The notes beneath the pieces were generated by a model. That model saw only the letters and a list, made by a program, of their open reading frames with translations. It did no database searches and had not been told where the DNA came from. The position numbers and the translations under genes are program-made. DNA of 64,000 nt from Marsupella aquatica (lineage: Eukaryota > Plantae > Marchantiophyta): assembly GCA_973895155.1 (NCBI GenBank), contig OZ316893.1, positions 20,878,955 to 20,942,954 of the forward strand, read 5' to 3'. Position 1 is the first letter of the stretch. The number at the start of each line of letters is the position of its first letter. Shown here one piece after another: positions 6,464 to 29,928 of the stretch.

Positions 6464-6669
6464 TTCCTTGATAAGATGTGATAATATACTGTGTGCACTC
6501 ATTGGCCTGTTCCTTGATAAGATGTGATAATATACTTGATAAGATGTGATAATATACTGTGTGCATTCATTGGCCTGTTACTTGATAAGATGTGATAATA
6601 TACTGTGTGCACTCATTGGCCTGTTCCTTGATAAGATGTGATAATATACTGTGTGCACTCATGGGCCTG
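6464..6669. repeat. 46-bp tandem repeat, ~4.5 copies
   Basis: Unit TTCCTTGATAAGATGTGATAATATACTGTGTGCACTCATTGGCCTG, with one half-unit. Confidence 0.9.
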
Positions 6670-6761
6670 CGGGCCTGCTTTCAGCTATCAAGGCCAAACC
6701 ATATGGACTTTACTATATACTAACACGACACTAGTGCTGCTTTAGAACAGTCCTTTGCAGG

Positions 6762-7064
6762 TGTTGGAATTTGTCAGTCCTGTCCGTTGCTGACTCCCTT
6801 TGGCTCATTGTCGGGAGTTGTTACTCTACTGGCTGTCTCAAACTCGCTGCCGTAGTCGGTAGGCAGTCTTCCCTAGATCCGTTTCGGGATCAGTCTGACT
6901 GCGCCACACTTAGCACAGTCCTAACCATAATTAGTTAGTCTGATCCCGGGATTATCCCTGTCGGCTGCTTGCCGCTGGCGCCTACTTGCGCCCTCACTTA
7001 AGCTGTATATAATGAGCCTCAGCGCTCCCGATTAATTAAGTTTCACACATTGAAAACTTCCACA
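6762..7064 (+). repeat. Copia-A 5' LTR
   Basis: TGTTGGAA...TTCCACA; about 4 differences from the 3' LTR by eye. Confidence 0.97.
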
Positions 7065-7082
7065 TGGTATCAGAGCCAGGTT
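7065..7082 (+). promoter_or_regulatory. Primer binding site (tRNA-iMet)
   Basis: TGGTATCAGAGCCAGGTT directly after the 5' LTR. Confidence 0.95.
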
Positions 7083-7126
7083 CGGGAACCCTCATACTCA
7101 TACTGATAGAGTAAGCGGTAATCACC

Positions 7127-10100
7127 ATGGCTTCAGGCGACGCAACCAAGCTCTCTTTCTCAGATAGCGACAAGTTAACTGGGGCACACAATTAAATTGT
7201 GTGGTCCTTTTATGTTGAGCAAATTCTGAGAGAAAGAGACCTCTGGGAGATTGTCGACCCCACCACGAATACACCTACTCCAACAGCTGGAGGAAGTAAC
7301 GCTGCCCAGCAGCATACTCCCTCACAAGCACAAAGCGCAGCATCAGCATCTTCTGAAGGAGGCGATGCTCAGCAGCGACCTGCAGCTACCAGTGGACCTG
7401 CAGCAGGTGCATCAAAGAGCCTGGCTGACGTCCAGAAGCAGAAGGACAGGGTAATCATTATACTTACCAAGACCGTCCATTCTTCTATTATTCCTATCGT
7501 TCAAAGGCTTAGTAAGGATCCTGCCAAGCTGTGGGCTATCCTTAAGCAAAAGTTTGAGTCATCAGCACTCCAGCGAAAGTTGGATCTCAAGTCCGCTCTT
7601 GCTGAAGCTCGCATGAGTGAGGGGTCCTCAGTGGAGGCCTACCTCAAGAAGATCGAGTACCACGTAATGCAACTAGGCAGCATAGGAGAGGAAATAGACG
7701 ACAAGGAACTCATTCATATTGTGCTAAGAAATTTGCCTGCAAGCTGGTCTGCGTTCAAATCAGTCTATAGTGTCATGTATGCCAAGGATCCTCTAGCCAC
7801 TTTTGCAGATCTGGAGGAGTATTTACAGGCTGAAGAATTCAGTCGTAAACCACACAACGAAGCTGATGAGCAATCTCTGCTTGCCCTCACTTACCCAAAA
7901 CGTGGAGAGGGAAGTAGAGGTCATCGTGGACGCGGAAGGGGACGTCATGACCGAGGAAGACCTCATAGAGCATATGATGGTGGCCCAGATCGACGAAACT
8001 GCAACTTCTGTGGGAAGCGAGGCCACTGGGAAGCTGACTGCTTCATTAAAACGGCTGACACAGAGATCAAGACGATGTCTGTGTCTCAGTTGAAGGACCT
8101 GCACTCGAAAATCAAAGACATCAAAGCCACTCCTGCATCCAAGGCGTACTTTGCTGAGGGGGACATTGGAGACAACAACTCTGAGTTTGGTGAATCCAGT
8201 GATCCCAAATCTTCACTCACTATTGAAGCAATGCTCAGTGAACTTGATGCCAACAGCACTGAAGACAAGACCTGGATTCTTGACAGTGGAGCCTCAGCTC
8301 ACATTAGTCGAGACAATAGTGGTTTTGTGAATCTTACTGGAGGTGCCTCTACCTCCACTGTCCTGACGGCCAATGGCTCTAAAATACCAGTCACAGGATC
8401 TGGATGTATTCCACTTTCAGGAAATAAATCTATTCGAGATGTTTTGTATGTACCGTCTATTGCTAGGAATTTACTCTCCGTTGGCAAGTTCACTGATCAA
8501 GGCCACTCCGTGCTGTTCAATTCATCTAGCTGCTATATATTTGATCCAAATAGACCATCACAGACCTACCTCAAGGGCTATAGAGATCCTCGTAGCAAGC
8601 TATACAAGGTGAAGTTGCCAGACCGTCCTCCCGGGAGAAATCTAGCTAAGACTACGCTGCTGCACCCCAAGCTATCTTCTCAATGTCACCTGGCCGAATC
8701 ACGACTATGTCAAACAAAGCTCTGGCATCAACGTTTGGGACACTCTAGTCATCAACGTATAAGCTACATGATCCGGAAGGAGTTAATCACGGGAGCTCCA
8801 TCTTCACTCCCTACCCCTGACCAACTATGCGAGACTTGCATAAAAGGGAAGCAATCTCGTCATCGCATACCTAAGCTTGCAACATCTCGTGCAACTAAAA
8901 CTCTGGAATTAATCCACTCTGACCTCTGTGGTCCCTTACCGGTTGCCTCTCTCTCTGGAGCAAGGTACATAATGACATTCACTGATGACTTATCTCGACA
9001 CTCATGGGTCTACTTTCTTAGAACCAAAGACGAAGCCTTAAACAAATTCAAAATCTTCAAGCAAGAAGTCGAGACCTCTCTCGGCGCAAAAATCATGTGT
9101 CTACGCAGCGTCAGAGGGGGAGAGTATATGTCAGATTTATTCAGATCATTTTGTCAGCAGCAAGGCATACACAGGCAACTCACCGTAGCAGGAACCCCTC
9201 ATCAGAATGGGGTAGTAGAACGTAAAAACCGGACCCTTCTTAATATCGTACGTAGCTTGTCAATTGGCTCGAACTTTCCAGCCTACCTATGGGAAGAATT
9301 GGTCAACACAGCCAATTACATCAACAACAGATGTAGCACACGAGCCTTGAATCTCTCTACCCCCACTGAATGTCTCACGGGTATCAAACCAGACGTCAGT
9401 CACTTTCGTATTATAGGAAGTACAGCACATGTCCACATACCCAAAGAAATGCGCAACAAGCTCCAGCCAAAATCAATCCGAACTGTGCTTATAGGCTACG
9501 ACAACAATAGCAAGGCATATCGTTGCTTCGATCCAGAATCACGTAAAATCCTCATTTCTCGGGATGTGATCTTTGATGAGTCCACTCAAGGGGATTTCTC
9601 AACAACTCAAGTTCATCAACAAGAAAGCATACTCAACTTGTTCCCGTTTGATGACAACTCTGATAGTGAGCCAGTCACTGCAAATCAGGTTCCAGTTGTT
9701 GACTCAACTACTCCTGAAATGGACCCGCCAACCTCAGACTCCATCGACAATTTACCAATGGAGCAGGCAGCTGAGATTCCTGACTCTTCATCAAACTTCA
9801 CCGATACTCCAACGGCTGTTCCTGAACCACGCCAAGTCCGAAGAGCACGTCAACGGGCATCACAACGAGCTCTCCAACGAACACGATCACCATCTGGTAG
9901 GATGACTTTGCACCCCTATTGGCTTTCTGATTTTACAGCATACATCTCAGAAACCACCGAGCAGCTCTTCCTGGCCCTACTTGCTGAATCTATCGACAAT
10001 ATCTCAGTCAATGATGCTCTCTCCGACTCGCGCTGGGTCAGTGCTATGCAACTCGAAATGGATGCACATCGCAAAAATGGCACCTGGGAACTTGTCAATC

Positions 10101-11608
10101 TCCCTCCCGGAGAGAAAGTGCTTTCAGCCAGGTGGGTGCTTAGAGAAAAACTTGACCAAGAAGGAAATGTCAAGTTCAAGGCCCGGGTAGTCGCCAGGGG
10201 GAATGAGCAATGTGAGGGATTGGACTACGAAGAAACCTTTGCTCCCGTAGTCAAGTGGTCTACAGTCAAGCTGATAGTAGCACTTGCAGCGTCTCTTGGT
10301 TGGCCCTTATCACACATGGATGTAGTGACGGCATTTCTCAACGGCACTCTTAGAGAAACAATCTACATGATGCAACCCCCAGGGTTTCTGACCCCAGGCC
10401 AAGAAAAGCTGGTATGTAGACTCAGAAAATCCATTTATGGGCTCAAGCAAAGCCCTCGAGCATGGTATGAAGAAGTGGACTCCTTCCTTCGCTCAATTGG
10501 GTGCAAACGTAGCTCCCTTGATCCCAATCTGTATACTATGCATAGGGATGGAAAAATTGCAATCATTCTGCTCTTTGTTGATGATCTTCTACTCACTGGT
10601 AGTGGAATAGATCTCATAACTGAACTAAAGGAGCAGCTGAAAGCAAAGTACGAAATGAAAGATCTAGGAGCAGCAAAGAGATATTTGGGCGTTGATTTTC
10701 TTGCTACAGAAACAGGGATACTACTGCATCAGAAGCACTACTCAGATCAACTCGTTCTTGACTATGGTATGGATAAATGTAAGCCTGTAGCCACCCCGTT
10801 ACCAGAAGGCCTTGAGCTCTCTGCGGAGACCAACACTCAAGACATCGACTCCACGGATTACAGTCAACTTGTTGGGAAACTCATATATCTCACTAACACG
10901 CGTCCGGACATTTCATTTTCAGTTGGATTAGTGAGCAGATTTATGAGTCAACCACAACAAGCTCACCTTGATGCTGCCATGCACATTGTTCGCTATGTCA
11001 GTGGAACATCTGATCTGGGAGTATTCTACGCCAAGGATAGTCCACTTGACTTAGAAGGATTCACTGATTCTGATTGGGGAAATTCCTGTCCCGACACGAG
11101 AAGGTCAACTGGCGGATACATATTCAAGCTCTCCGAAGGTCCAGTCACCTGGAGTAGCAAAAGGCAACCAACGGTGTCCCGGTCCACCACAGAAGCAGAA
11201 TACAAAGCACTCTCGGATGGTGCCCAAGAAGGAGTCTATCTTAAACGGCTACTCGAAGAACTGCAAAGTAATGACTCTCCTCCAAGCAAAGTCCATTGCA
11301 AGAACAGCGACGTCACAACAGACCTGGTGAACGCAACCCCGACACTTCAAGACTTACACTTAAATTGTGATAACATGAGCGCTGTTAAGCTTGCAAAAAA
11401 TCCAGTGTTCCATGCCCGAACAAAACATTTGGAAATACATCACCACTTTGTAAGAGAACGAGTATTCGAAGGGGAACTTTCTATACATCACGTCAAATCT
11501 GAAGATCAAGTAGCTGACATCTTGACAAAGTCACTGTCGAAGATAAAGTTCATTAGAAACTGAGATGTATTAGGAATGCGATCAGTAACCCAACTACAGT
11601 CAGGATGA
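7127..11608 (+). pseudogene. Copia-A gag-pol polyprotein, nearly intact
   Basis: ATG 7127; premature TAA at 7193 (KLTGAHN*IVW) and a probable premature TGA at 11561. Zinc knuckle CNFCGKRGHWEADC, PR WILDSGAS, IN HSDLCGP, RT YGLKQSPRAW/LFVDD, RH FTDSDW...ADILTK. Confidence 0.93.
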
Positions 11609-11678
11609 TTGACACCCATAGAGTAAATTCTCCTCATTAAGGCCACTGACATTGCTCTATTTAGCCTAGTCTCAATTT

Positions 11679-12158
11679 CTAGCGCGCTCTAGCTTGCTCC
11701 TTCGCTAGATACAATTCTGCCTCGCTACGAGTCTTGAACGACTTATACTTGTTGCCTCGGAAGCCGCTCACTAATGGCTCTGCCTCCTCCCAAGTAGTGT
11801 AGATCCCCGGGCGTCGACCTCGTGCCACAGCATAATATCTTCTGGTCAACTCCTTCGAGAAATCTTGAGCTCCGTCTTCTGTTGGCAGGCATTCAGGATC
11901 TCCCTTGCATACAGGAGCGCTTGGCTCTAATGAATGCATCATCTCTCCAGCTGCCTCAATCTCTATCGAAGTGCCAGTAAGTGACACTGATGTCTCTGGA
12001 TCCCCAACAGGGGGAGTCGTCTCTTCTGCTCGGGGTGTGCTGCCATAACTACATACCAAATAGTCGTAAGCACTCCGGGAAAGCGCCGATATGAACTCCA
12101 ACAGGGAAAGAACCAAATGCATCACTGATTCCTTTAACGTTGCCTCCTCGTGTGCCAT
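11679..12158 (-). CDS. Antisense extra ORF of Copia-A with a C-terminal RNase H1 hybrid-binding / caulimovirus viroplasmin domain (159 aa)
   Basis: YYAVARGRRPGIYTTWEEAEPLVSGFRGNKYKSFKTRSEAELYL fits the HBD pattern; ATG lies in GCCATGG context; TATATA at 12192-12197. Confidence 0.85.
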   Translation of the reverse strand: MAHEEATLKESVMHLVLSLLEFISALSRSAYDYLVCSYGSTPRAEETTPPVGDPETSVSLTGTSIEIEAAGEMMHSLEPSAPVCKGDPECLPTEDGAQDFSKELTRRYYAVARGRRPGIYTTWEEAEPLVSGFRGNKYKSFKTRSEAELYLAKEQARAR

Positions 12159-12291
12159 GGCTGTCCGAACTCTGGGTGCACTTATGTCATGTATATACTT
12201 AGATCAAGTCGACTCATAAGGCTGCGTCATTTCTCTCTCTCTCTCACAGCTAAATTTATGTCGACCTTGGTGGTCACAGCGAGCCACGGTC

Positions 12292-12300
12292 GAGAGGGGG
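12292..12300 (+). other. Copia-A polypurine tract
   Basis: GAGAGGGGG immediately before the 3' LTR. Confidence 0.85.
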
Positions 12301-12603
12301 TGTTGGAATTTGTCAGTCCTGTCCGTTGCTGACTCCCTTTGGCTCATTGTCGGGAGTTGTTACTCTACTGGCTGTCTCGGACTCGCTGCCGTAGTCGGTA
12401 GGCAGTCTTCCCTAGATCCGTTTCGGGATCAGTCTGACTGCGCCACACTTAGCACAGTCCTAACCATAATTAGTTAGTCTGATCCCAGGATTATCCCTGT
12501 CGGCTGCTTGCCGCTGGCGCCTACTTGCGCCCTCACTTAAGCTGTATATAATGAGCCTCAGCTCTCCCGATTAATTAAGTTTCACACATTGAAAACTTCC
12601 ACA
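12301..12603 (+). repeat. Copia-A 3' LTR
   Basis: Direct repeat of 6762-7064, followed by GCAGG. Confidence 0.97.
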
Positions 12604-14734
12604 GCAGGTTCTCACTGCTCGTACCAAGTATCATTACAAACAGGACAGTGCATAGAAAAGTGTGTTCACGTACTGACGCAGTCACTCACTCGTGTCATGG
12701 ACCAAACTAGTCAAGCCAAAATTTTCCCCTTGACGTGGGGAAAGCTTCCAAGTAGATAACGCTTGCGAAAGCTTGCCATCAAATCAATTGCATTCGATGA
12801 AATCTGAAAAAGCAGAAGTAGGTATGTAGGCACGAGGTAGGTAGCTAAACTAGAGTCACTAAACAATGGAGATGACCTTTTCCACGGAACGATGGTCATA
12901 GATTACGTGACTGGGCAATATCCCATCTCAATTGGGTTGCTCCATGCTATTGTTTCCGTACTGACGCTTGAAAAATATCCTTAACCCAATATATTCGTTT
13001 ATTGGTTTTTTGGACGACTACAGTAGTTCTGTGAATTTTGGTCCAGCCGTAATTAGATACTACAAATTAACTTTAGAACAAAACTTCACACGATCGAGGA
13101 GCATCTAAATGTGAGAATCCTTGATCACTACAGTTGAACAAGAAGCTGGAAGTTCAATTATCCTGACGTGAACAGTGGCAGAAGGAGTAGCTGGAAGTCC
13201 AATCATCCGTTGGCAAAACAAAGTAACAAACCGACTTGACAATAGAACAAGAGTCAAACTGGACTTCCTCGTCACTTCAGTGTGGGCCAGAGTCATGGGA
13301 AGAGGTACTAGTGAATAAAAGGAGCCAGACACGAGCCACGACACGAGCTGGACCTCATCACGTCGGAGTGTGCCACTTGTGAAGAGGTATCGTAGTCGTG
13401 AAGAAAACGTACGAGAACAACGCAAAGAAAGGACAAGTTTCCGGAAATAGCCACCTACCAAATCATGCGAATCAAAGTAACAAGTGGACCTATTGTGTCT
13501 AGTTGTGCCAAAAGCACACAGAGTCATATATGTAAGACAATATCGTATCACGCAGAAGCCAAGAAAGTATTCAACCCCGTCTACACTCTCATTCTTAAAT
13601 TGTAAACTAGCACGAGAGCTAAGAATTCGGCTTAGAAGTCAGGAACCTTGAGCCTTGCCTCTGTCTGCTTTTCTACGTCAAAACCCTGAAGTGGTCACTC
13701 TGCTCACCTCCAATTTTTTCCCATCTTGTCTCTACTTTATTGGCTTTAAAATCCCCTTTATTCTCAGTGTCCCCAGGCAGGGATCCGGTCTCAGTCGAGG
13801 TCTTCTTGTTTAAGCTCTTTTTATTTTTTTGCCTCTTCTTGTACCTTTGGGATCCTGTCTCCCTGTTTTATTATTTGGCAGTGTGATATATCTAAATAAG
13901 GAAACTAAGGTGGACCCCAAAGACCCAACGAAGTCCTGAATATATATAGAACCTACTGTACTAGATCATCTTTCTCCGCCAAAGCTCGACGATTTGTTCA
14001 CATATGTAGGACTCATCTTTCTGCGCAAAGCTCGATTTGTTGATATAGGTAGGACCGGATGCAGGACTACAGTTGAGTCAAAGTCCAGATCCGTTCATGT
14101 TGGACCAAAGAAGCACCGTAAGAACTCAGGAACATACCTGGCACTTTCGAACCGCGACTTACAATTTGGTCTGTTGTAAGTTGTTTTTCCCAAAAGTTAA
14201 ATTGGTGTCTTCTGTGTATACGTTAGGGTGCAAAAATGTCATCTTGAAGACTCTTCTCTTGTGCAAGAGGTCAAATTGACGACCGAAAGGTACATATCTG
14301 AGAGCTAGGATTATTTTTTTATCTCACATGTTTGACTTCTAATAAGTGTTCAATCTCCTGAAACAAGGGTCCTTCCAGAGTCTACTCGGATTGTTTGTTG
14401 GAAAGTACGAATTGTAGCTAGTTATCTATGTCCGGGCTCTCCGACAAGATAGGATTTGAATATGAAAGTGTGAATAATATCTCCTTGGCCCATGCTGATT
14501 TAGTCCACGCGGCAAATCTCGTCCCCTATATTTGTTCGACGAGCTCGATCAAGTGGAGGCACCTGTACATCCTTATTTAGCTTTGCGTTTTTGCGTTTGA
14601 AGTACTCGATCACATTATTTACCGGACCTCAGGACGTATACAAGGAGGCTGTGGTGAATCAAGTTTCTCGGATTGAAGACTGACGAGAATCGTTGGGCTC
14701 GGAAGTAACAAACTCGAAGGCACAGAACAGGGGA

Positions 14735-14765: not shown

Positions 14766-15651
14766 ATGGCGGGTCGACAGGGAGGCACGCTGATTGCGAT
14801 ACTGGTAGTCTTAGGGTTGATGCATAGTGCGGCAGCCACAACTTATGCTGTCAATGTGCCTGGTTCGAATAATGGTGGCTGGGGTTTCGTGACGTCTCGG
14901 AACTCAACTTCGTACGACGACACTTTTAAGAATACCCAATTGTTCGTTGGAGACATTCTCAGTAAGCCCTCCTTGTCGCTCAACTAAGTCTTGGGAAATT
15001 GGTTTCATCGCAAAGTCCAAAGTTTGATTGGAAATTTTGCACTTCAAGATTGTGTTTCTTTGAGCTCGTGCGAGTGAACATTAATCATCATACGTTAGGT
15101 GCATTTCAGAATTTATGGTCGGACACAAGTTCTGTCCTGTCTCTCAGCCAACCATTTCAGCGGAGAGCTGAGCAATAGGAAAGAGAATCCTCACAAACTC
15201 CTGTTCTTCGTCGACATTTACGCAAATTGTGAACTCACTAATCACCTAATCAAAGGTTGTTGCATGGCTCTGCCGACGTGTAGTCAGCGTTTGATCTTGA
15301 ATTTTCAAATTTTGGTGTGCAGCTTTTACATTTGCCGACAACGTGCATGATGTCTACGAAGTATCTCCAGCGGATACTCTCAGCTGTAATTTCTCGAGCC
15401 CCATTCACATGTATACAACTACTGTGAATGTGGCTCTGGACACCGCCGGTCAACATGGATTTATCTGCAGCTTCCCTAGCCACTGCGTGACTTTCGGGAT
15501 GCACTTGCTGGTGACAGTACGTAATGGCGCTCCGTCTGGCCCTGCGTCTGGACCTACATCTGAACCTCATAATGCTGCTTCGTTTTTGCGCGCTGGATCA
15601 GGAATGATAGTGGGAGCTCTGATCGCTGCTTCTGCACTTCTAGCGCTTTGA
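14766..15651 (+). CDS. Phytocyanin (uclacyanin-like blue copper protein, predicted GPI anchor); exons 14766-14961 and 15323-15651
   Basis: Signal peptide; GT-AG splicing gives FVGDILTFTFADNVHDVYEV; Cu ligands H, C, H, M (FICSFPSHCVTFGM); Pro/Ser linker; hydrophobic C-terminus. Confidence 0.92.
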
Positions 15652-18600
15652 TTCAGGTCTTGGATTCCAATGCTGGTTGTAACATCAGTGTAAGCGATAC
15701 CATCGCTCGACAGTGGCCAACATGTTCACTTGACTTACAAGTTTCGAGCAGTTTGTTCAGAGCCTGCAAAACTGAGCGAAATTTCTCGAGGGCTCCGAAA
15801 TTTCTCGAGGGCTCGTACTACTACTTCCTTCGTTCTAATCCTTCGTCTGTTTACCTTCGGGAAATTCTGTCGCAGAGGTTATGAATATACCCACAGAGCG
15901 CACAAATCTGTAGCAGTCACGTCATCTGAAATCTGAAGTACTTGTTTCATTCGTTCAATTCTTTTCTAGGTTGAGGGGCGATTGTCCAGTTTTCAGTGTG
16001 ACGTTTCTCCTCAACCATAGCAGTGATATTTCATCGATCCCAACACATAAGCAGGCGTGACTCTTCGATTTAAAAAACACTTTGAGAAAGAAAATCGATA
16101 GATTTTGGCTTCGGTAGGATACCGGCCGTGTAAATTGTCATCATAATTAAGCTTGAGTCCTATAGTGCAGTGACGCTTCTCCTGGCTGAGGGGTGAGCCC
16201 TTTGACGAAGCATTGAGAGGATCTTCTATCCTGAGCTATAGAGATGTCAATATCTGAGCTTAAACTGTGCTGTAAAATTGTACCTACTACCATTTATGAT
16301 GACAGATTATCTTTGTTCTTGAAAATTCAATTTCTGACGACGAAGGCTAGGAAATATTTGCATTGGATGGCTTCTGGGAAAGTGAGTGAGAGGCCAGTCG
16401 CGACTAGAGACTCCTCCCTGGAAACAGTTCTTCCACAGTAAAATGGCTTGCAGATTCAATTTGAAATCGTTTTGGAGATCGTAGCCAGTTTGATTGATTA
16501 ACTGATGCTCGTGGCGTTCCTCCAGTTGAGAATTTGTTATTTAGTGCCACTGTCAAATTTTAACTTAACCCAAGATTATTGATGCCTGATGCGCTAAGAT
16601 ACTTTGACCATTCCTCAAATTAAATTCATTGCATAATTGTAATCCTTAGTGGGTTGTTGAGGAGATCACCTATGATCCACTATCAACTCCACAGTCTGGA
16701 CTGCAGATCTCTATGATCCACTATCTACTCCACAGTCTGGACTGATGCTGAAATGACTCCAATGATGTGGCAGCCTCACTTTGAGAGTCACAAACAAACA
16801 GCAAATGCATCGATGACAAACAAAATCAATAAACATGCCATGAGCACCCATGGACCAAAATGTTTGACAGATTGTTGGAGTGGACCATCACAACTCAGAT
16901 GGATTGCAAACAACCTTTTTTGTACTCAAATAGCACTTTTCCTTTGCAAAACAAATTATACTTAATTCTAAGTCAACTTTTCCATATCTATCCCTATGAA
17001 TATATATATATTTGACTACAATATTCACCATTTATGCTTATTAGTCTTCTTAGTTTGATTTCTACTTGGATGACGCAATTTGGATCCAAAAATACAATTG
17101 CACTAGGCCCAACAATATTATTAGTATTCATGTTATACGGTGTGCATGCTTGAGCTCAAATTTGCTGAACTACTATTTACCATAAGGCCCTGCTAACAAG
17201 GAAGTTAATACTAATCCTTCAGTTGAACTATTTTTTAAATTATTTTTTTCAAATTTGTTTATTCTGCTTGATCCCCAAATGCAAAAGAAGGTAAAAGAAG
17301 CCATAAGTGGCATAAGAAAGTCATAACAGGGAAATTTGAAATCAAAAGAAAACTACCATTCCCAACAAGAAACCAGGCAGACTGGCATAGTAGGAAGTCT
17401 TTGTAAGTGTCTACTAGCCACAATCATCAAGGCCGAACTGCAGGTCACCAGTCATCAGAACCAGACACAGCAGGAGTGCAGGACCCCAAGACAGCCCTCA
17501 TCAAAACAATTCCAGCCTAACTACCCTTCATAGCAGAATTCTAGTATGCTCTGGTTCTAAGAGGGCCCGAGCTCCAGTTAACCTGGCAATCTTTTGAGGT
17601 GAGCCTGAAGCAGCGGCCACAGCTGAGAGGTGGTCAAGAACCTCAGAAATGACAAGCAATTAATTAAAGACCCGCCTCTTTGATAGAGCAAAAGTCTGGC
17701 CATTTTGTGCCAGCCGGATGCACCATATAGCATGCTCATCGTGGAACATGCTTTTGTCTTGTAGTGATCCTAAAGTAAATAAAATATGAGAGCATAGCTA
17801 GAAGGATAAAATAATGTAAGTAAAGAGTCTATCAAGAAAAACACAATGACCGATGAAAAGTCCAATCAAGTTTTATGACACAACACATTTGTTAAGGTTT
17901 GTGCACTTAATTCAATGTGCCTTATGAATGACATTCATTTCAATAGAAACCATAAACTTAGGAAAGAAGGACATGAGGGGAACTTAAGACACTATGTGTT
18001 CATGTTATTCATAATGTTTCTCTCACTCATGAGAATACTTGTTTCAAGTGGTGGAGCCCGTCGGTTTCATCTCTAAGACATCACAAACTTTAAAAGTCAT
18101 AAGGGGCTGCCAAAATAAGTTCAAAATACTCTAGAATACCTTAAATTAAAGGGGTCTGAAAATTAATTTAAAATGTATATCACACAAAAGACACAAAAGC
18201 CGCCCCTTGATTAGGCATATTGAAATAAAAACACATTACACAAAAATCTGAAAGGTGGATTCACCATAGAACCTGATATAAGACAAAGAAGGGTATATAA
18301 AGTTGACTTCCTCACAGAATTTAGGATTAGTTCAACCAAGTCCAAAGGCACGATGGAAAAGTTGTCCTGCCAGCCATCCATGAGCTTCAGCCCAGATCCT
18401 TGAACTATTCTTAACTCTTACTATTTTCTCTTTCACACTTGAAGACAAACCCAAATATCATGCAAGTTGAGATCATTTAACTTTCTCGTCAATAAAATAC
18501 ATCTATATATTGCACTTACTACCAAATCTCCAAGATAGGATTCCCAAGATATGAAACCCAATTATAGGAAACCCCAGGGAAAGCTGGAGACCAAATATAC

Positions 18601-19184: not shown

Positions 19185-19529
19185 TGTTAGGATTTACTCT
19201 TAGGTCTAGAATTACGAATGTACAGTAGTTAAGGCTAACCTTAGTCGCAGACTTGGTTAGGTTAGTCATGTTGTGCACACTCTATAACCAAGCGGTGTTT
19301 GCTTGGAGAGGTGGAACTTAGGCTCATTGTTACGGAGCTAGTTGAGAGATAGAGAGAGCTTGCGCTGTGGATGCTTGGTATGGCCGGTCGACCTAGAGTG
19401 CAGTAAAGCTCGTGTGTGTTCTCGTGGACGTAGCCTCATGTGGAGGTGAACCACATATCTCTCTGTGTCGATTCTTGTGCGTTGGATGGTTCATGGGCTT
19501 GCCGTTGCGATTATCGTCTATACTTAATA
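19185..19529 (+). repeat. Copia-B 5' LTR
   Basis: TGTTAGG...CTTAATA; about 9 differences from the 3' LTR by eye. Confidence 0.95.
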
Positions 19530-19531
19530 AT

Positions 19532-19543
19532 TGGTATCAGAGC
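19532..19543 (+). promoter_or_regulatory. Primer binding site (tRNA-iMet)
   Basis: TGGTATCAGAGC, 2 nt after the LTR. Confidence 0.92.
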
Positions 19544-19857
19544 ATGCCTGGGAGGTGACGAGGTTTCTTCGTGATGGGTTTTCCAACGTTCAGTGTCGGT
19601 GTTGCATTCGGAGTTTCATCGCATGAAACTCGAATGTGTGTCGATGAGCGGATAGATTAGTGAGAGGGCTTTCTATCGGTGTATAGAACTTACTGGTTGG
19701 TATCTGTGGTGTGGAGGAATCGGAGTTTGCGTCAATCTGGAGTTTTTTTCGTGTTTGACGGTATTTTTCGGGGGAGACCAGAGTTTGTGTTATTCAACGG
19801 TGTGAGCTGTGTGGTGCGGGAGACGCCGCATGTTGTAGCTCAAGTTGAAGATTGAAG

Positions 19858-20153
19858 CTCGGGGGTTTCACTTCCACAAAAATGGCATATCACGTGCGAC
19901 GAAGGATAGGGTCATTTTATTGGTTCTAAGGGAAGACTTAAGAATTTTTGTAGAAGAACAATAGGGTCTTTTAAATTCAATTTTGAGACTTATAAGAATA
20001 TTAGGGTCTTTTTAATCCAATTTTTAGAATATTCCAAGAATATTCCAACTTTATAGGGGTTAAAAAATTAATTTTTTTTCTTACATTTTAGGGGGTCCGA
20101 GGCCTAAAACCGTCGCAGGCGATGGGGAGGTCCCCATATAGTGAGCCCCCGAG
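19858..20153. mobile_element. MITE with 8-bp TSD (CTCGGGGG-terminal family)
   Basis: Ends CTCGGGGGTTTCACT / AGTGAGCCCCCGAG; TSD GATTGAAG at 19850-19857 and 20154-20161. Confidence 0.9.
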
Positions 20154-20569
20154 GATTGAAGAAACCTGATCATTTCGGTAGCTGAGTTGCTGCCGAGTAA
20201 AAGAGGAGTTCAGGTTTTTTCACAGGCTATGGAGTTTGTTCACATCTGAACTGGGTTTTCTCGTCGCCGTGACCAACTCGAAGGAAGAAACGCAAAGTGC
20301 TACGACTCAACGTTTTGATCGCGGCTAGGCGGTCATTTTGAGTCCGGGATTGGCACTTGACGTGGAGTGAAGGCGACGTGACAGAAAGTTTTTTCTCTGC
20401 TGTCACCTGCTTATCAAACAATTTACATGACAAATACGTATTTACTCCTACTAAAATTGTTTGTTATCGTATGACGGGAACGTGGAGGGACGCTATTAGG
20501 ATTCTATTGCATGTAGGATGAGTATGTTTATTTCCGCTCCCAGAAATGTAATTTTTGATCAAGTCTACC

Positions 20570-20814
20570 CTCGGGGGGGTCACTATCTGAAGGGTCATAC
20601 ATCACGTGCGACGGTTTAGGTCATTTATGACCCCCCTAAGTCACTTTCTAGAAAGTTGTACGGCACCAATCATATGATGACATGTATGCATTTTGCAATT
20701 AAACAACCCTATATTTCCATAGAAGACTTAATAAGTCTTCCGCCAAAACCATTTAAATGGCCCTATACTTCGTCGCACATGACATGCCACTTCCATGGAA
20801 GTGACCCCCCCGAG
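20570..20814. mobile_element. MITE with 8-bp TSD, nested in the solo LTR
   Basis: Perfect 15-bp TIR CTCGGGGGGGTCACT / AGTGACCCCCCCGAG; TSD AGTCTACC at 20562-20569 and 20815-20822. Confidence 0.92.
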
Positions 20815-21756
20815 AGTCTACCGACTAGTCGCTCTGCTTTTGATCAAGTCCCATGGACTACACCACACACACACTCCTACTGGTCGTTTGTGGAGTGCTG
20901 TCACCACCCCTCCTACTCACATGGTTGACCAAACCGTGCAAGGATTCCTTAGATACTTCTTGGGGAAAGAACACAATCTTGAACCAGAAAAGATAACGCC
21001 ACACCAAAACTTGAGGAATCAAACCAAATCCATATCTTTTGGCAAAACGTCGTAACACATTGCAAGGACAACCCGGCCTCCTGCCGTCTGCCCAACTACT
21101 GCCTCACTGGGGCAAGTGCTACACCTCTACCTCACTACTCTGGCTTGATTCCCTCTTCTGACTATGAGCTAACCTCCCTAAGAAAACACTAGACTGAGTC
21201 CCCCCCCACTACTACGGGGCTCTCCCCTAAATACTCAAAACAACACACCAAAGCACCCCTCATGGGGTCACAAGGATGGTGGCTACTCTAGCGGCGCCGC
21301 TAAAACCTTCACGGAAGAAATCCCTAATCCTAAAGCATGCGGCACACACATGCTCAGAAAACCCTAATCTAACAATGGGACCGACTGTGCCTTCGACGGC
21401 GCTCCAACCTTGCTCCGTGAACCGCGAAAATGCAAGTGACCCCACAATTACCGAAACTAGGTGCCACTCTGATTGCACCTCTGAACTCAACCCTAGGTAG
21501 CCCTGCTCCTCCTAATCATGAATCACAAAACCGCTCTCGAAACGGATGCCAAACGACCAAGTTATGGCCATTTCAGTATCACTTACTTACTAACTTCGTC
21601 GGGCCCTAACTTACTCATCCTGGCTCCGTTTGAGGAGTGCCGCCTCTTGTTGGAATCAGCTCCGTGAGCTCCTTCCAACAAGCCCGTGAGTGCACCATTC
21701 CAAAAAGTTTCAAAATCCAGAGGTCGTACGACAGGTCCGTACGGCTACCCTAGTCT

Positions 21757-21912
21757 TCCTCCTCACTCACGGTGCCATGGCTTGAGCCCCGTGAGTTGGT
21801 CTCCTGATCAGTCCTCCTCCTCCTCACTCACGGTGCCCTGACTTGAGCCCCGTGAGTTGGTCTCCTCATCAGTCCTCATTCTCCTCACTAAAGGTGCCTT
21901 GGCTTGAGCCCC
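21757..21912. repeat. ~61-bp tandem repeat, ~2.5 copies, inside the solo LTR
   Basis: TCCTCACTCACGGTGCC..G.CTTGAGCCCCGTGAGTTGGTCTCCT.ATCAGTCC repeated. Confidence 0.85.
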
Positions 21913-24058
21913 GATCCTCCTGTTCGCCACCACCGGTTCGTTGTAAAAGGAGGGGGTCCCTATAATTGTCGAAACTAAAATTTTCTCAGAATTCACTTCT
22001 GAAAACATATCTGAGGAGCCCTCCTCTTCCTGATCATGGCTCCACAAACGGTGCACAAAACAGAGGTCAAACGGCCAAGATATGATCGTTTAAGTTTTTA
22101 CGGGGCACCGTCTCCCTTCGTTTCGTCCGTACAACACGTTTCCCCCGGCTTTGCAAAACATAGATCACGGTTTCTCCGTATGTGCTACTACCTCCTCCTT
22201 CCCTTGCAAAGCTGGGACCTCCTTCCGTACAACCTCAAAACCCTCGTATTCTCAAAAAACGTGATTTGTCGTATCTCCCCCGTCTTAGCTCCGTTTCAGC
22301 CGAGTGACACATCGTTGGATTCAGCTCGGCGAGCTCTTTCCAACAAGCCCGTAGACTCCTGATTTTGAGATGGTCAAAAATCTGATGTTTGTACAACCAG
22401 GGTCCGTACATACGTTCAAAGCAAGCACAAGAGGGAAAGGGTTTAGGGTTTAGGTATGGGTGGAAACCCCACAAGTGACAATAGAGAAAGAAGGGAAGGA
22501 AGAAAGTGTGAGGGCCCCTTCTACGGATGTGTTCTTCTACAGAGTGCCCCTCTACGGAGTGGGGAACGGAAAGAGAACAAAAACCATGTGAGGACCACAC
22601 AAAGGGTGAAGGGGAACACAAGTGTGAGAACCCCTTCCTTCTAAGGGCCCTCCCACCATCACTACTCCAAGATTGCCTAGTTTGTTGTTTTACGTGTGTT
22701 GAGGTCCCTCGAGATGTCACTGTTTGATATAGACCTAAAATCAACTAGAGAACCTCAGTTTCGCATGGGGCTCATTGAGGGCTTCAAAATGAATCCAAAC
22801 ATGACCATGTTTGTAATAGTACTAGCGCAACAACGTCTATTTTAAGTTTCAACATTTTCTATATTTTGGTCATTCTTCCTGTTTTGCGCCTTATGTGGAG
22901 CCTCCGACCAGCCCCCACCCCTCCAAGATGCCCACACCTTGGCTCCAAGTCATTGGGCTGCCTTGTGGCCTCCTTGTACCCCCTCAATGGTTCCCTTGTC
23001 ATACATCATCGCCGACACCCCTCTCAACTCCGGCCTCCGGTTGTCGCATCCATTTATTAGAATTAACAAAAATAAAAAATTTAAAAATCCAAACACTTTT
23101 ACTACACCTACTTGTCTTTCTACTTATATACGCAATTATAAGTCATCACTAAGTTACTACCAGGTTTGGGGCCCTGTCACATCTGCTGGAGCTGCAAACT
23201 GTGCCGGTGCAATTCGACAACTTTTTCCGTCAGTGGCGTTCACTTTTCTCGTGTAAAGCGGCAACGGCGATTAGGTTTGTAAAAATGGCCTCTTTTGGTG
23301 ATCAATTTGGCATTTTTATTGGGTTACTATAGGGCGAATTTTTTCGTGTGTATTTTTTCATGTGTCCGATTTTTTGTGTGAATCTTTTTTTGCTCGCCCT
23401 TTTGTTCGTCCTCCCGACCGGCCCCTCCCTCCGGTTGCCACGAGGCTTGTACTCTCGAGGGTACTTGCGTACCCCCGACGCGGCCCTGCCCCGACCTCGT
23501 ACACCCGACCTCCCTCCATACACACCTGTATTTGGTTAAAGGGGCCTTTAGACCCCCTTTAGGGCCAATTTATTAATTCCTTTTCCGGCTCCTTATTGGT
23601 TATCCCTTGTGCTGGGACCTGCCGCCCCGACTTTAATCGGCTGGACAGGGGGAACGGCCCCCTGTGAGACCTGTCGGACTGTGCGGGAATATTCCCAAAA
23701 ATAGAGAGCTGTTTTTTGGCCGTCCGACAAAGATTCCGCGCGCCGAACGGTAACTTTTTTGGTTCTTTTTTGGCAAGGTCGTAGCCATTGAAGTTAGCAA
23801 CGCGGCGCACCAATCAAATTGCAATTCCGATGACGGGTTGTCCTTGGCATTTTGGTTATTCCCTGAGGTGGTCAAAACAGGGGAGTTTCCCAAGGTTTTA
23901 CCCACCCCGACCAAAATTTGAATAACTTTTCCGTCGAATTTTGATTTTGATTTTGGTTTTCAGTATTGGACTCCTAGCTTTGTGGGCTGCGCGGCGGTGT
24001 TGAGTTTTGAGTTTTTTGAGAGATTGTGAAAAACGACATTTTTTTGTGATTTTCTCAT

Positions 24059-27000
24059 ATGAGTGATTCGGAGGAGTTTTTTGAAGATGTGGAACTTGAA
24101 GCACGAGGATCACTGCCACAATTTGAGGGGCAAAGAGAGGAGCAGGAGAAAGAGCATGTGACATCAATACCATCACCGATGCGGCGTGTGGTGGAGGAAG
24201 CAGTACTACTACCGGAGCTCACGGTAGTGCCAAAGAAGAAGATGGGGACTTTCAAGCTTGGGGGACCCAAGTATGAAGTGACAAAGTATGATGGGCGCTC
24301 TGACTACTTGCTATGGGAGAAGCAAGTGAATGGAGTGCTCTATGCGTCACGGATGGGCCAACTGCTGAGCCCTCATGAAGACGATGTTGATGAGAAACAA
24401 TGGGACCGCATGCAGGAGCAGGGAGTGTGGTGTGTTACACTCTATCTCATGCCTCCCATCATCAAGCAGTTGGGTGCACATAAAGATTGCATGTCCTTGT
24501 TTGCGAAATTGCAGAGCAAGTATCACCGCAAGGAATTGTCAAACCGGCTCTATACTTCCTACAAACTGATGAGTTTTAGAATGAAGGAATCCGGTACAAA
24601 ATTGCAGGACCATATGGACGCTTTCAACGACATGGTCGTTGACTTGGAAAACCTTGGGGAGACTTTGAATGATGAGACGAAGGCTCTGCAGCTTCTCAGT
24701 TCATTGCCTTCATCTTACCAGTCCCTATCACGGGTGTTGTTGCATCGTGATAGGGATACCATTTCATACAATGACGTGGTAAGTTATCTGTTTAGTGATG
24801 ATCTTCAACAAAAAATGCACATCACGTCACAGCCTTCATCATCTAGTGCTACCCTCAATGTTAACCAAGGGAGGAGTATGCAGCGACCAACTGGGGACCA
24901 TAGAACCCAGTTTAGATCTAAATCCAGATCTAAGTCCAGGGGTAAATCCCCTCACAGGAGGCAGGCAACATGTTGGAAGTGCAACCAAGTTGAACACTTC
25001 AAGCAAGACTGTAAGAAAAAGACAGCAGAAACTTCATCGACAAATGTGGCTAGGGCTGATGGAGAAACTGATTTACTCAATGATGAGTATGTTTTATGAA
25101 GTCGGGGGTATGCCCTGTGCACGTCATCTAGGAGAGCAGATGATGTGTGGATTCTTGATTGTGCTTGCTCTTTTCATATTTGTTACATTCGTGAGTTTTT
25201 CAGTTCTTACTCTATTTCAAACGGTTCAGTTCTAATGGGAAATGATCACTCCTGTCAAATTGAGGGAATTGGGTCTGTGAAGATTCAAATGTTTGATGGC
25301 GCTATGCGCACAGTGTCCAGAGTCAGGTATGTACCTGGCATGCGTAAGAATCTGATTTCACTCAGTGTGTTGGATTCAAATGGTCATCAATGGAGCGTTA
25401 TTGATGATGAACTTCAAGTCAGGTTGGGAGAGACAGTGATTTTGAAGGGGAGCAGTCAGAAGAATTTGTATGTGTTACACGGCAATATTGTATGTGAAGA
25501 GGCCAATGTAACCAAGTCTCACGAGGAGATGACTCAACTGTGGCATTCACGGCTAGGCCATATGAGTGAGAAGGGTTTGGCTATCTTACGGAAGAATGGA
25601 CTCATTTATGATTTGCAATCTTGTAAATTAGAGTTCTGTGAGCATTGCATTCTTGGAAAGCAACATCGTCGTGCTTTTGGTGTTGGTACTCATCGTTCCA
25701 AAACGGTTCTTGAGTAGATACATAGTGTCCATCCCCGACTCCCTCACACTCTGGAAAGTTGTACTAAGTATCATTTATTGACGATTACTCAAAATTTGTG
25801 TGGATTTATTTCATGACGCATAAGTCTGATGTCTTGTCCATTTTTAAGAAGTGGAAGGCCCAGGTGGAGAATCAGACTGGAAACACGCTCAAGTGTTTGG
25901 ATACAAGGGTGAAGAGTCTGAGGTCAGACAACGGCGGGGAGTACACTTCAGTAGAATTTGAAGAGTACTGTTCAGAACAGGGGATAACTCGCCATCTCAC
26001 CACAGTTTATACTCCGTAGTAGAATGGTGTCGCTGAGAGGCTCAATCAGACGCTGTTGGAGCGGTCACGGAGTATGTTGAGCCAATCAAATTTACCACAA
26101 GAATTTTGGGCAGAAGCTGTCAATACCGCAACTTATTTGGTAAATCTTTCTCCTTCTAGTGGGCCTCATTCACAATTGGAGGACCCAAAAGGAACGTCAC
26201 ACTCAAAAGTGACCATAGTTTATTATGCTTTTAGGACTTAGGCCTAATGTAGAGTGGATTCAGATATTTGGTCCACCTAGAGAGCCTTACTAATCAATCT
26301 ATTCATTAAAAGTGAATTATTATTCAATTTATGAACATTTGGGCAATAGAAAGTGTATATTTGGCCTTCAAAAAGTGTACAATTAGGCAAGAAACAAAGT
26401 TGATGGCCATCAAATGTACCACCATGTTCATCATTTGTAAATGAAGTAGGATGAGACTCCTTCTAGTCAAGATCATTTTTGTCACCTCAAGTTTACAATT
26501 GATCATTTAGGTGTAGAGTATTATACCATAGTGTACCTTTTGGGTTTAAAAAGTGAACATTTAGAGGCCTAAAAGTGAACAAAATAAAATACACTTTTGA
26601 TGAATAGGGTGAATTAGGATATCATTTTTAGGGTGTAATGAGATGATATAGAGAATTTGATGTACTATACTTAATAAACATCCTATAGGTTGGTAACATT
26701 CATTAAACTATCTAGCATTTTAGACTTTGAAGCTTTCCTTATATGTCCTTCAAAGATTGATAAAAGGACTTGTCACGCAACGGGTCACATCATTTCAGGA
26801 CTCAAAAGGACTCTAATAAATGTATTTTAGACAATGAAATTTTACCAAAGCATGCATACTAATAGCATAATCTTATATGTCAAAACTTAAATAGTGACAC
26901 ACACTAAACCTTTATGTACAGGACAAAAATAATCAGTAATTTTGGCTTATTTAGGGCCATCAATAACAGGATCCCTTAAAACAGTTGAAAACTTGATGTA

Positions 27001-29391
27001 TCTACATGGTGAGGTAGGTTACACCATGTAAAATAGTCTTGTGAAAAAATTAGACTTAAATGTCTTGAGATAAAATCATGATGAACCTTTTTCCATGTTA
27101 CGAAAGTCATTTTTCACTAAAAAAACATGTTTTTGAGTCTTGAAAGTGGTTCCTGCGAGGTACACCCAATTGTGAATGAGACCAGTGCTATCAATTTCAA
27201 AACACCGTTTGAGATGCGCTATAAGCGGCAAGCAGACTATCATGGCTTGGTAGTTTTTGGAAGTGATGCATATGCTCTCACACCAAAGCAGAATATGACC
27301 AAATTGGATCCTACCTCCAAGAAATGTGTTTTTCTTGGGTACCAGAGTGGTGTGAAAGCCTATAGGCTATGGGATCCTATTGCCTGTAAGCTCGTTGTCA
27401 GTAGAGATGTTTCCTTCAATGAATCCAGATTATTGAAGGAGGGGGAGAATACTCAGGTCTCCCGTACTGACAAAAGAAAATCTCCTATCCCGGATCTCAT
27501 TGAGGGGGAGATTGGTCATGAGGTGCATGACCAAAGAGAAGGAGTTGCTCCAATTATGGAGTTGGTTCCTGTGCCAGAGGAACCAGAGGAGTTTGTTGAT
27601 GCTGGTGAGCAGCAAGTGGATGCTGTTGAGCTTCAATTTGTACCAGCACACGGAGATCAACCGGAGTCATCGGCTAGAAGAGCATCTGGTCGCACTGTAC
27701 GCGCTCCACCAAGGTATGGACAGTGGGTTGATTCATCTCAGTTGCAAGAGGAGGATTTTGTTACTAACAATGAGGGTGATGCGTTGATTTTGGAAGAAGG
27801 GGAACCTTCTTCATTTCATGAAGCAAGTGCTTCAAAGGAGAAGCAGGAGTGGATTGCAGCAATGCAAACGGAGATGCAGTCACTCAAGGACAACAAAACT
27901 TGGGAGCTTGTCAAGCTGCCTGAGGGACAGCAAGTGGTGGACAGCAAGTGGATATACAAGCTGAAGGATCAGTCCACGGGAGGTGGATCGAAGGTCTAGT
28001 ACAAGGCTAGGTTGGTAGCCAAGGAATTCACACAGAAAAAAGGTGTGGATTACAATGAGGTCTTCTCACCAGTTGCTAAGTACTCAACAATACGGCTATT
28101 GTGTGTGCTTGTTGTTATGTTTGGTCTGCTGCTAGATCAGATGGATGTTGTCACAGCTTTCCTCTATGGCACCTTGGAAGAGATGATCTTCATGAGACAG
28201 CCGCTAGGTTTTGTGAAGAAAGGGCAAGAGAATTTGGTTTACAGATAATTGCTGAGATCCTTGTACGGGTTGAAGCAGTCACCAAGACAGTGGAACAAGC
28301 GGTTTGATGATTGGATTCGTGCACAAGGTTTTCACAAGAGTGTGTTTGACCCATGTGTGTATCTTAAACTGGTGAAGAATGCTATTTTTGGGTTCATTGT
28401 TTTAGTACTTTATGTAGATGACATGCTTATTGAGGCCAATGATAGGTCTGAGATTGTTAAGCTCAAGGCATTGCTTAGTGTAGAGTTTAAGATGGACTTA
28501 GAGCCACCTAAGAGAATTTTGGGTATGGAGATCACTAGGGACTTGAAGGCCGGTAAACTATGGTTGATGCATAGCAGTTATGCGAGGAAGGTAATTGCAA
28601 GGTTCAACATGGGGGATAGCAAGCCAGTAAATACCCCATTGGCTCCACACTTCAAGTTGTCATCAGCTTTCTGTCCTACGGATGACACAGAGAAGGGGTT
28701 GATGTCAAAGGTTTCATATGACAAGGCAGTGGGGAGTCTCATGTATTTGATGACTTGCACTAGACCTAATCTTGCCATGGCTATGGGCAAGGTGAGCAGG
28801 TACATGCCGATCCCAAGGAAGGTACACTGGGAAGCAGTGAAGTGGATTACTCGGTATTTGAAGGGTATCGTGGATCATGGTCTATTGTTTGATGCACATG
28901 CTGATAATGCTAGATCATTGATGGGCTATGTAGATGCTGACTATGCACAGGATCTGGATCGAAGGAGGTCAACAACAGGTTATGTGTTCACACTTGAAGG
29001 TGGATGCATAAGTTGGAGGTCTACTTTGCAGAAGTGTATTGCTCAGTCTACTACAGAAGCGTAGTATGTTGCAGCAGCGGAAGCAGCAAAGGAAGCGATT
29101 TGGTTGGATAGACTTATCACTGAGATGAGATTGCCACAGGGGAATGTGAAGCTCCATTGTGATAGTCAGAGTGCACTCCACCCTGCTGTGAACCAAGTGA
29201 TGGACAGCAGAGTGAAGCACATCGACGTCAGGTACCATTTTATCAAGCAGGTTGTGTCTGATAATATGTTTGAGCTAGTCAAGATTGACGGTAAACACAA
29301 CCCGGCTGATGCTTTTACCAAAGTGATTCCTTTGGAGAGTTTTTCTAAACACCGTGATGCGTTGCAGGTTTTGCAATTACCTCACAAGTAA
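24059..29391 (+). pseudogene. Copia-B gag-pol, degenerate
   Basis: Gag with CWKCNQVEHFKQDC, PR WILDCACSFH, IN LRSDNGGEY, RT YGLKQSPRQW/LYVDDML, RH YVDADYA...ADAFTK; several stops, an indel in IN and a 1-kb insertion. Confidence 0.95.
26162..27183. mobile_element. Non-autonomous TIR DNA transposon inserted in the Copia-B integrase region
   Basis: TIR GGCCTCATTCACAATTGG / CCAATTGTGAATGAGACC (17/18); AGTG on both sides; excision restores NLSPSSAINFKTPFE. Confidence 0.93.
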
Positions 29392-29583
29392 GGTTACTTA
29401 ACATTTGTGTAGATACTGAGATATGCTCTTGCTCATTCCTTGTATAGGCTACGGCTTAGTTCTGGTCTACTCTCGTATAAAGAGGGAAAAAACCGGTTTG
29501 GTTTTTCTTTCCAGAACTTCCCGCTGAGCAGTCATATTGGTAGCAGTCTTTACCCTCCCCTAGACCAGAGTCAAGGGGGAGAT

Positions 29584-29928
29584 TGTTAGGATTTACTCTT
29601 AGGTCTAGAGTTACGAATGTACCGTAGTTAAGGCTAACCTTAGTCGCAGACTTGGTTAGGTTAGTCATGCTGTGCACACTCTATAACCAAACGGTGTTTG
29701 CTTGGAGAGGTGGAACTTAGGCTCATTGTTACGGAGCTAGTTGAGAGATAGAGAGAGCTTGCGCTGTGGATGCTTGGTATGGCCGGTCGACCTAGAGTGC
29801 AGTAAAGCTCGTGTGTGTTCTCGTGGACGTAACCTCATGTGGAGGTGAACCACGTATCTCTCTATGTCGATTCTTGTGCGTTGGATGGTTCATGGGCTTG
29901 CCGTTGCGATTGTTGTCTATACTTAATA
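29584..29928 (+). repeat. Copia-B 3' LTR
   Basis: Direct repeat of 19185-19529, followed by GACAA. Confidence 0.95.

Follow-up and report, generated by a model that had tools for sequence, protein, structure and literature searches.

Antisense accessory genes have been described from the Ty3/gypsy elements Retand, Ogre, Grande and RIRE2, in which open reading frames (ORFs) named aORF-3R or eORF-3'R lie between pol and the 3' LTR (PMC7264820; PMC11963269). According to these reports the genes are held in common across copies and families, their products are predicted nucleic-acid binders, their regions measure 2.9-6.6 kb, and the domains recognized in them are TRP28, the plant mobile domain, DUF390 and SMC. 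Their function is presented as an open question, partly because the products resemble nothing of known activity (PMC7264820). Among copia elements an extra ORF past pol is known from SIRE, whose env-like eORF-3'F is sense, longer than the ORF reported here and without a conserved domain, while the Bryco and Osser lineages are characterized by a primer-binding site for half-molecule tRNA-Met (PMC6317226). The REXdb survey counted extra ORFs only from 250 codons up; its table of eORF domains occurring in at least five elements has no copia entry and no PF01693, and its accessible text makes no mention of Marchantia (PMC6317226). Because of this minimum length and the absence of Marchantia from the text, this main survey was bound to miss an ORF of 159 codons.

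The isolated hybrid-binding domain (HBD) of RNase H1 (PF01693; PDB 3bsu, 1qhk) binds RNA:DNA hybrid with a Kd of 0.2 µM, dsRNA with 4.9 µM and dsDNA with 23 µM, a preference of about 25-fold for hybrid over dsRNA (PMC5737507). In the human domain W43A or loss of F58-K60 ablates hybrid binding (PMC6846478). The same motif occurs in caulimovirus P6 (TAV/viroplasmin), an accessory protein of a reverse-transcribing element that is translated from an mRNA of its own and has a short N-terminal helix preceding the motif (PMC3836500; PMC5670102). In CaMV P6 a deletion in the miniTAV, overlapping the RNase H-like motif, abolishes replication (PMC3836500). Within a transposon PF01693 has been reported in capE of the Pleurotus Helitron helpo1.3, a DNA transposon with no link to reverse transcription, where it is described for the largest copy (PMC4289320). 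ORF2 of a barley pararetrovirus gives only a weak TAV match (10.1101/2025.06.08.658526).

Here we present a Ty1/copia element of the liverwort Marsupella aquatica which carries a gene for an HBD protein in antisense orientation. The window, i.e., the whole stretch of DNA analysed, comprises 64,000 nucleotides of contig OZ316893.1; the features are listed in Table 1. Like the aORF-3R genes the ORF is antisense and lies between pol and the 3' LTR; it differs from them in its copia instead of gypsy host, in its size (159 codons in a gap of 0.7 kb) and in its domain, PF01693.

Table 1. Features of the element and its antisense gene, in coordinates of the window.
Feature	Position	Strand	Evidence
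Left target-site duplication GCAGG	6757..6761	+	sequence
5' LTR, TG...CA, 303 nt	6762..7064	+	4 differences vs 3' LTR
Primer-binding site TGGTATCAGAGC	7065..7076	+	sequence
gag-pol, one frame, Gag-PR-INT-RT-RNase H	7127..11608	+	Pfam, frame check
Clade-specific RNase H insertion, ~18-26 aa, predicted extra helix, bounds approximate	11270..11353	+	alignment, model
Antisense accessory ORF, 159 aa	11679..12158	-	ORF list, shuffle test
RNase H1 hybrid-binding domain (PF01693), aa 107-150	11709..11840	-	Pfam, alignment, fold
Acidic, proline-rich, variable linker, aa 40-106, predicted disordered	11841..12041	-	model, alignment
Conserved hydrophobic N-terminal helix, aa 8-39	12042..12137	-	model pLDDT 71-96; helix profile
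TATATA, candidate antisense promoter element (weak)	12192..12197	-	sequence
Polypurine tract GAGAGGGGG	12292..12300	+	sequence
3' LTR	12301..12603	+	paired with 5' LTR
Right target-site duplication GCAGG	12604..12608	+	sequence

The host element belongs to Ty1/copia by its LTRs, 5-bp target-site duplication, primer-binding site, polypurine tract, PR-INT-RT-RH order and RT of the RVT_2 type. A Pfam scan of the element recovered Gag, protease, integrase and RVT_2 in copia order, the RNase H fold of its pol was confirmed by a structure model, and Rfam gave no matches within the element. The first-pass annotation, made from the letters of the window, had placed the ORF inside LTRs bounded by a target-site duplication, which is correct: GCAGG stands on both sides and the LTRs differ at 4 of 303 nt. 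It had also put the pol stop at 11608; this holds for the far gag-pol stop (11606-11608), but two earlier in-frame stops (7193-7195 and 11561-11563) were overlooked. Since contigs of other copies have different letters at both of these stops, the copy in the window is a damaged one. The primer-binding site, which we take to be the complement of the 3' end of initiator tRNA-Met, is of the ordinary TGGTATCAGAGC type, and membership in Bryco or Osser was rejected on this presumed assignment. Membership in SIRE was rejected on the orientation of the extra 3' ORF, antisense here and sense in SIRE.

The antisense ORF runs from a GCCATGG start without interruption, as first described, and occupies 480 nt of the 683-nt gap that separates 11608 from the polypurine tract, i.e., most of the space behind pol. 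An ORF of this length on either strand arose in 6 of 2000 base shuffles of the 683-nt gap. The TATATA reported 34 nt upstream is present, at a distance of 33 nt from the antisense ATG; as a promoter signal it is weak, because the leader would be very short, a uORF of two codons intervenes, and TATAWA occurs in 3.8% of 45-nt bins over the whole window. The adjoining minus-strand stretch 12198-12250, upstream of the ORF, contains a GA repeat, a TGACG motif and two short upstream ORFs, which may have a role in its regulation. The earlier statement that the ORF has neither a TIR nor a target-site duplication of its own stands within the range of the check applied to it, which found no inverted repeats of at least 40 nt. 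Origin of the ORF from a nested element was rejected because the layout is common to the sister family described below.

The domain identity proposed in the first-pass annotation is borne out by the Pfam profile: PF01693 scores 71.6 bits (cut-off 21, E 6e-20) over model positions 1-44 of 44. No other Pfam family was found in the ORF at E<=0.1, and the RNase H catalytic domain is therefore absent, as had been supposed; none was detected by Pfam in 7/7 homologues either. Residues 107-150 align with the RNase H1 HBDs of yeast and human, whose structures are solved. The architecture first read from the translation (hydrophobic N-terminal helix, acidic linker, C-terminal HBD) is seen in both sequence and structure model, the latter giving a helix at residues 8-39, low confidence over 41-103, and then the HBD fold. 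The modelled HBD superposes on 3bsu with an rmsd of 1.2-1.4 Å; the Foldseek E-values are only 0.002-0.03 because of the shortness of the domain. Searches of the ESM Atlas with the whole protein returned basidiomycete PF01693 clusters (best 0.92), and with the helix no usable match.

The protein shares with RNase H1 the sequence and fold of the HBD and the equivalents of human W43, F58 and K59, which are kept in 7/8, 7/8 (as F or Y) and 7/8 family proteins, respectively. It differs from RNase H1 in that the HBD is C-terminal and stand-alone, with a family-specific helix ahead of it. The equivalent of K60 is S or A in 8/8 family proteins; at this position other HBDs have S in 61/181 and K in 62/181. 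The replacement could lower the affinity for hybrids. P54 of the RNase H1 domain is replaced by an invariant arginine; R134, at a position where other HBDs have mostly S, K, P or A, is invariant in the family and may compensate for the missing K60. The family HBDs are basic, with 8-11 K+R vs 5-7 D+E. An RNase H1 enzyme was ruled out by the lack of a catalytic domain, and an RNase H1 retrocopy was rejected because this domain is absent and the domain order is wrong. P6 is a sense-encoded protein of 420-530 aa with further RNA-binding and translation domains, whereas the ORF protein is antisense-encoded and short. Whole-length superpositions on P6 give rmsd values of 17-37 Å, and a part common to both is therefore demonstrated for the HBD alone; each also has an N-terminal helix, for which the superpositions do not establish homology. 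Assignment to the caulimovirus P6/TAV proteins was rejected, the ORF protein having 159 aa, lying within a copia element and demonstrably sharing the HBD only (PMC5670102; PMC7102451).

The element is present in four public sequencing runs from two studies, one of them possibly the source of the window itself. An 810-nt contig of run X3 matches the RNase H at 122/150 positions (11114-11263) and 148/189 positions (11345-11533) and the HBD at 126/154 positions (11686-11839), in the same orientation and with 169 nt between the RNase H and HBD matches vs 153 in the window. Contigs of 2900 nt (X1) and 3008 nt (X2) contain the same HBD variant. On the basis of these contigs there is a sister family, about 80% identical, with the HBD at the same place and in the same orientation. 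Its HBD is conserved to the same degree as its RNase H, and spacer and linker gave no alignment at the 80% setting. Direct linkage of the HBD ORF to copia is seen in this family and one sister family only.

Substitutions were counted for 18 of the 28 differences of the 810-nt contig, the rows of the other contigs being left out. Third codon positions of the antisense frame account for 15/18 differences (p 1.9e-5), and 15/17 changed codons are synonymous (p 1.4e-8 vs 22% synonymous sites). In the worst case, with all 10 remaining differences non-synonymous, p is 1.7e-4, or 0.013 vs a 33% expectation. This shows the HBD to be under purifying selection. A plus-strand gene as the cause of the third-position bias was rejected because the frame sharing the third positions has stops in the HBD stretch. 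Summed over this stretch, depth is greatest for the sister family in which the HBD is ungapped; depth is not equal to copy number. Damaged forms of the ORF were also seen: a 1-nt deletion at 11937 in contigs of 2/4 runs, a weakly supported 344-nt skip (11929-12274) in 2/4 runs, and a contig departing from the ORF at 11745 in 4/4 runs. Broken ORFs in some copies are what dead copies would be expected to show, and the contigs give no copy shares.

Further proteins with helix, linker and HBD were found (P0001/P0006, P0050, P0086, P0099, P0149, P0181). These six homologues are 34-48% identical to the ORF protein; by region, identity to it is highest for the HBD (57-73%), lower for the helix (25-47%) and lowest for the linker (16-25%). 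A leave-one-out helix profile scores 7/7 family helices at 29-42 bits, against at most 10 for 200 shuffles, and 7/7 homologues scanned pass the PF01693 cut-off with an RNase H match in none (0/7). In P0002 the HBD is present and the helix absent. Two further designs of hydrophobic N-terminus, linker and one HBD (P0318/P0182 and P0184) were left out of the family because of helix-profile scores of -0.8 and -0.9 bits; they have possibly reached the same design separately. In an HBD tree (60 rows, 48 columns) the family takes 2 changes, which is compatible with a single origin; the domain is too short for a donor to be named. A viral scan for homologues found none, and a metagenome scan yielded 18 loci, with a copia pol match at 0/18.

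P0099, accession CAM6101554.1, originates from the leafy liverwort Calypogeia fissa, which also provides the nearest named full-coverage relatives of pol (67%); the top pol match is the fragment P0195 (78%). An RT-only tree of 45 chosen rows groups the element with three Calypogeia fissa proteins in a clade of 7 rows (100/99), to which the Riccia and angiosperm matches do not belong, and a 115-row tree, from which 8 short rows were dropped, agrees with it. P0002 and P0195 both lie on contigs of 2904 nt, a circumstantial link to copia pol for one of the eight homologue entries. For P0001 (5467-nt contig) and P0050 (5180-nt contig) no pol contig of equal size occurs among the 120 matches listed, and the Calypogeia pol proteins looked up are on contigs sized differently from that of the Calypogeia ORF homologue.

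The ORF is a real, selected accessory gene encoded by the element, and a family feature instead of a one-off. Its first-pass description as element-encoded is upheld by the same position in the sister family, by purifying selection and by diverged homologues with helix and HBD; sister family and homologues likewise speak against capture of a host RNase H1 by a single copy. Antisense accessory genes are thereby extended from gypsy to copia. No HBD gene in a copia element was found in full-text literature searches (subscription journals, Repbase and bioRxiv supplements being outside their reach), nor in the accessible parts of 10.1101/572842, PMC12884080, PMC13468544 and PMC12885004. In the literature searched and in the REXdb eORF domain table the earlier impression that no such antisense ORF had been described from copia is confirmed. 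As the structure of the domain is solved, its affinities are measured and mutations that abolish its binding are known, the function of an antisense gene becomes directly testable with one protein of 159 aa. A small natural hybrid binder could in addition serve as an R-loop probe.

With its two conserved modules on either side of a variable acidic linker and its lack of a catalytic domain, the protein looks like a tethered reader. The reading we tentatively prefer, at somewhat less than even chances, is that the antisense product acts as a tethered, non-cutting clamp on the RNA:DNA hybrids of the element, keeping host RNase H off. Transcription of the gene would start from an antisense promoter of its own, located at or close to the 3' LTR, and the HBD would bind RNA:DNA hybrids and, more weakly, dsRNA. 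The N-terminal helix would tie the protein to itself or to Gag/Pol, providing avidity and placement at reverse transcription, and competition with host RNase H1 for cDNA:RNA intermediates would result in more cDNA. The hybrids which a retrotransposon must form are the intermediates of reverse transcription. In yeast without RNase H1 and H2, cDNA:RNA hybrids of Ty1 are increased and its mobility rises about 12.5-fold (PMC4214602). Shielding is preferred because of the roughly 25-fold hybrid preference of the HBD, the hybrid nature of these intermediates and the restriction of Ty1 by RNase H in yeast. Against it stand the S or A at the K60 position, which could lower affinity, and the contigs with a damaged ORF. 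Reverse transcription also takes place within particles that host RNase H may hardly be able to enter, the Ty1 effect in yeast may run partly through DNA-damage signalling, and a tight binder could hinder the element's own RNase H too. If shielding is true, host RNase H would be a real restriction on plant retrotransposons, with an evolved counter.

A more specific version, doubtful on what the sequences offer, is that in a clade of liverwort copia elements the protein is specialized in counteracting host RNase H1, as a decoy made from the enzyme's own HBD. If true, this would be the first retrotransposon counter-defence against RNase H surveillance and a 'mini-P6' arrived at independently of the caulimoviruses; the same reader could steer integration to R-loops as well.

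The RNase H of the element offers another, unlikely, explanation, in which the protein is a helper in trans: its helix would dock on RT-RNase H, with the clade-specific insertion as a possible site, and lend the HBD that copia RNase H lacks, for processivity. The insertion follows the first long helix and adds 18-26 aa with a predicted helix; the RNase H model gives no hint on its role. The spacing of two RNase H motifs was measurable in 67/124 pols (not in 57/124) and is 60-68 residues in 22/67 and 41-43 in the other 45. Of the 45 RT-tree rows 19 carry the insertion, all 13 of a well-supported clade plus 6 adjacent ones, and it is absent from the Riccia and angiosperm matches measured. The HBD gives RNase H1 affinity and processivity (PMC5737507), the ORF linker resembles the RNase H1 spacer, and other plant retroelements have gained an extra RNase H, the aRH in Tat (PMC6317226). 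Fusion to pol would, however, be simpler than a separate antisense gene, an HBD is found in none of the pols fetched, the insertion clade (19/45 rows) is wider than the known distribution of the ORF, and most copia elements manage without such a helper.

Distinctly less probable is a silencing suppressor, a dsRNA binder that would hide sense/antisense RNA of the element from Dicer. HBDs do bind dsRNA (PMC5737507), P6 with the same motif suppresses silencing (PMC3836500), and antisense transcription would itself yield dsRNA (PMC7264820). The affinity is nevertheless about 25-fold lower for dsRNA than for hybrid (PMC5737507), and suppression by P6 maps to its N-terminal D-I and survives deletion of aa 166-201 (PMC3836500). 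As CaMV P6 keeps suppression in D-I after the miniTAV deletion that kills replication, this reading is weakened, and the shielding of dsRNA from silencing put forward in the first-pass annotation is less likely than was implied there.

In chromoviruses chromodomains have an integration-targeting role. An adaptor of this kind, improbable here, would read chromosomal R-loops with its HBD and recruit the integration complex with its helix. The architecture of reader, linker and tether would suit, and in yeast without RNase H more Ty1 is found at the R-loop-rich 5' flanks of tRNA genes (PMC4214602); only one insertion was seen here, though. Lower still we place a self-limiting factor, by which the protein would block the element's own RNase H steps, capping copy number, and would be retained because of the damage that unchecked families do to the host. 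The restriction factor p22 encoded by Ty1 is a precedent, a non-cutting hybrid binder can presumably be dominant negative, and a separate antisense promoter would permit opposite regulation. Long retention across diverged families is, however, more easily explained by a benefit to transposition, and the highest summed depth, which is not copy number, belongs to the sister family with ungapped HBD.

The helix has a best 19-residue hydropathy of 1.9-2.1 in 5/7 helix-bearing proteins, which would suit a transmembrane segment. A membrane anchor or a protein of the movement type, by which the element's nucleic acid would be attached to plasmodesmata or membranes, is nonetheless very unlikely, as the value is 1.4 in the ORF protein and 1.1 in P0050, both with a mid-helix glutamate, and the conservation of the helix is sequence-specific, not compositional. 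Least credible and largely refuted is a passenger, a captured host or microbial gene fragment without a role for the element: HBDs are promiscuous (4400 PF01693 representatives at E<=0.001), a fungal Helitron has one too (PMC4289320) and damaged copies exist, but the synonymous bias, an HBD conserved like the RNase H, the two-module pattern retained across proteins 34-48% identical, and the usually sense orientation and few copies of transduced genes (PMC7264820) stand against it.

Some further observations concern the surroundings of the element. Directly upstream of the insertion is a tandem repeat with a period of 46 nt (6464-6696). Contigs of runs X1 and X3 link both flanks (6736-12616) via 40 other letters, a pattern resembling that of an unoccupied site in another allele or at a paralogous place. 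A second, decayed copia element (19185-29928) has the target-site duplication GACAA and LTRs that measure about 345 nt and end in TA. About 4.5 kb with 61-nt tandem repeats lie from its 5' LTR to gag, and its integrase region is interrupted by a gap of about 1 kb; the element gave no match to the HBD. A duplicated segment (15290-15667 and 31604-32032), 78-86% alike, apparently encodes a hydrophobic C-terminal tail and possibly belongs to paralogous host genes.
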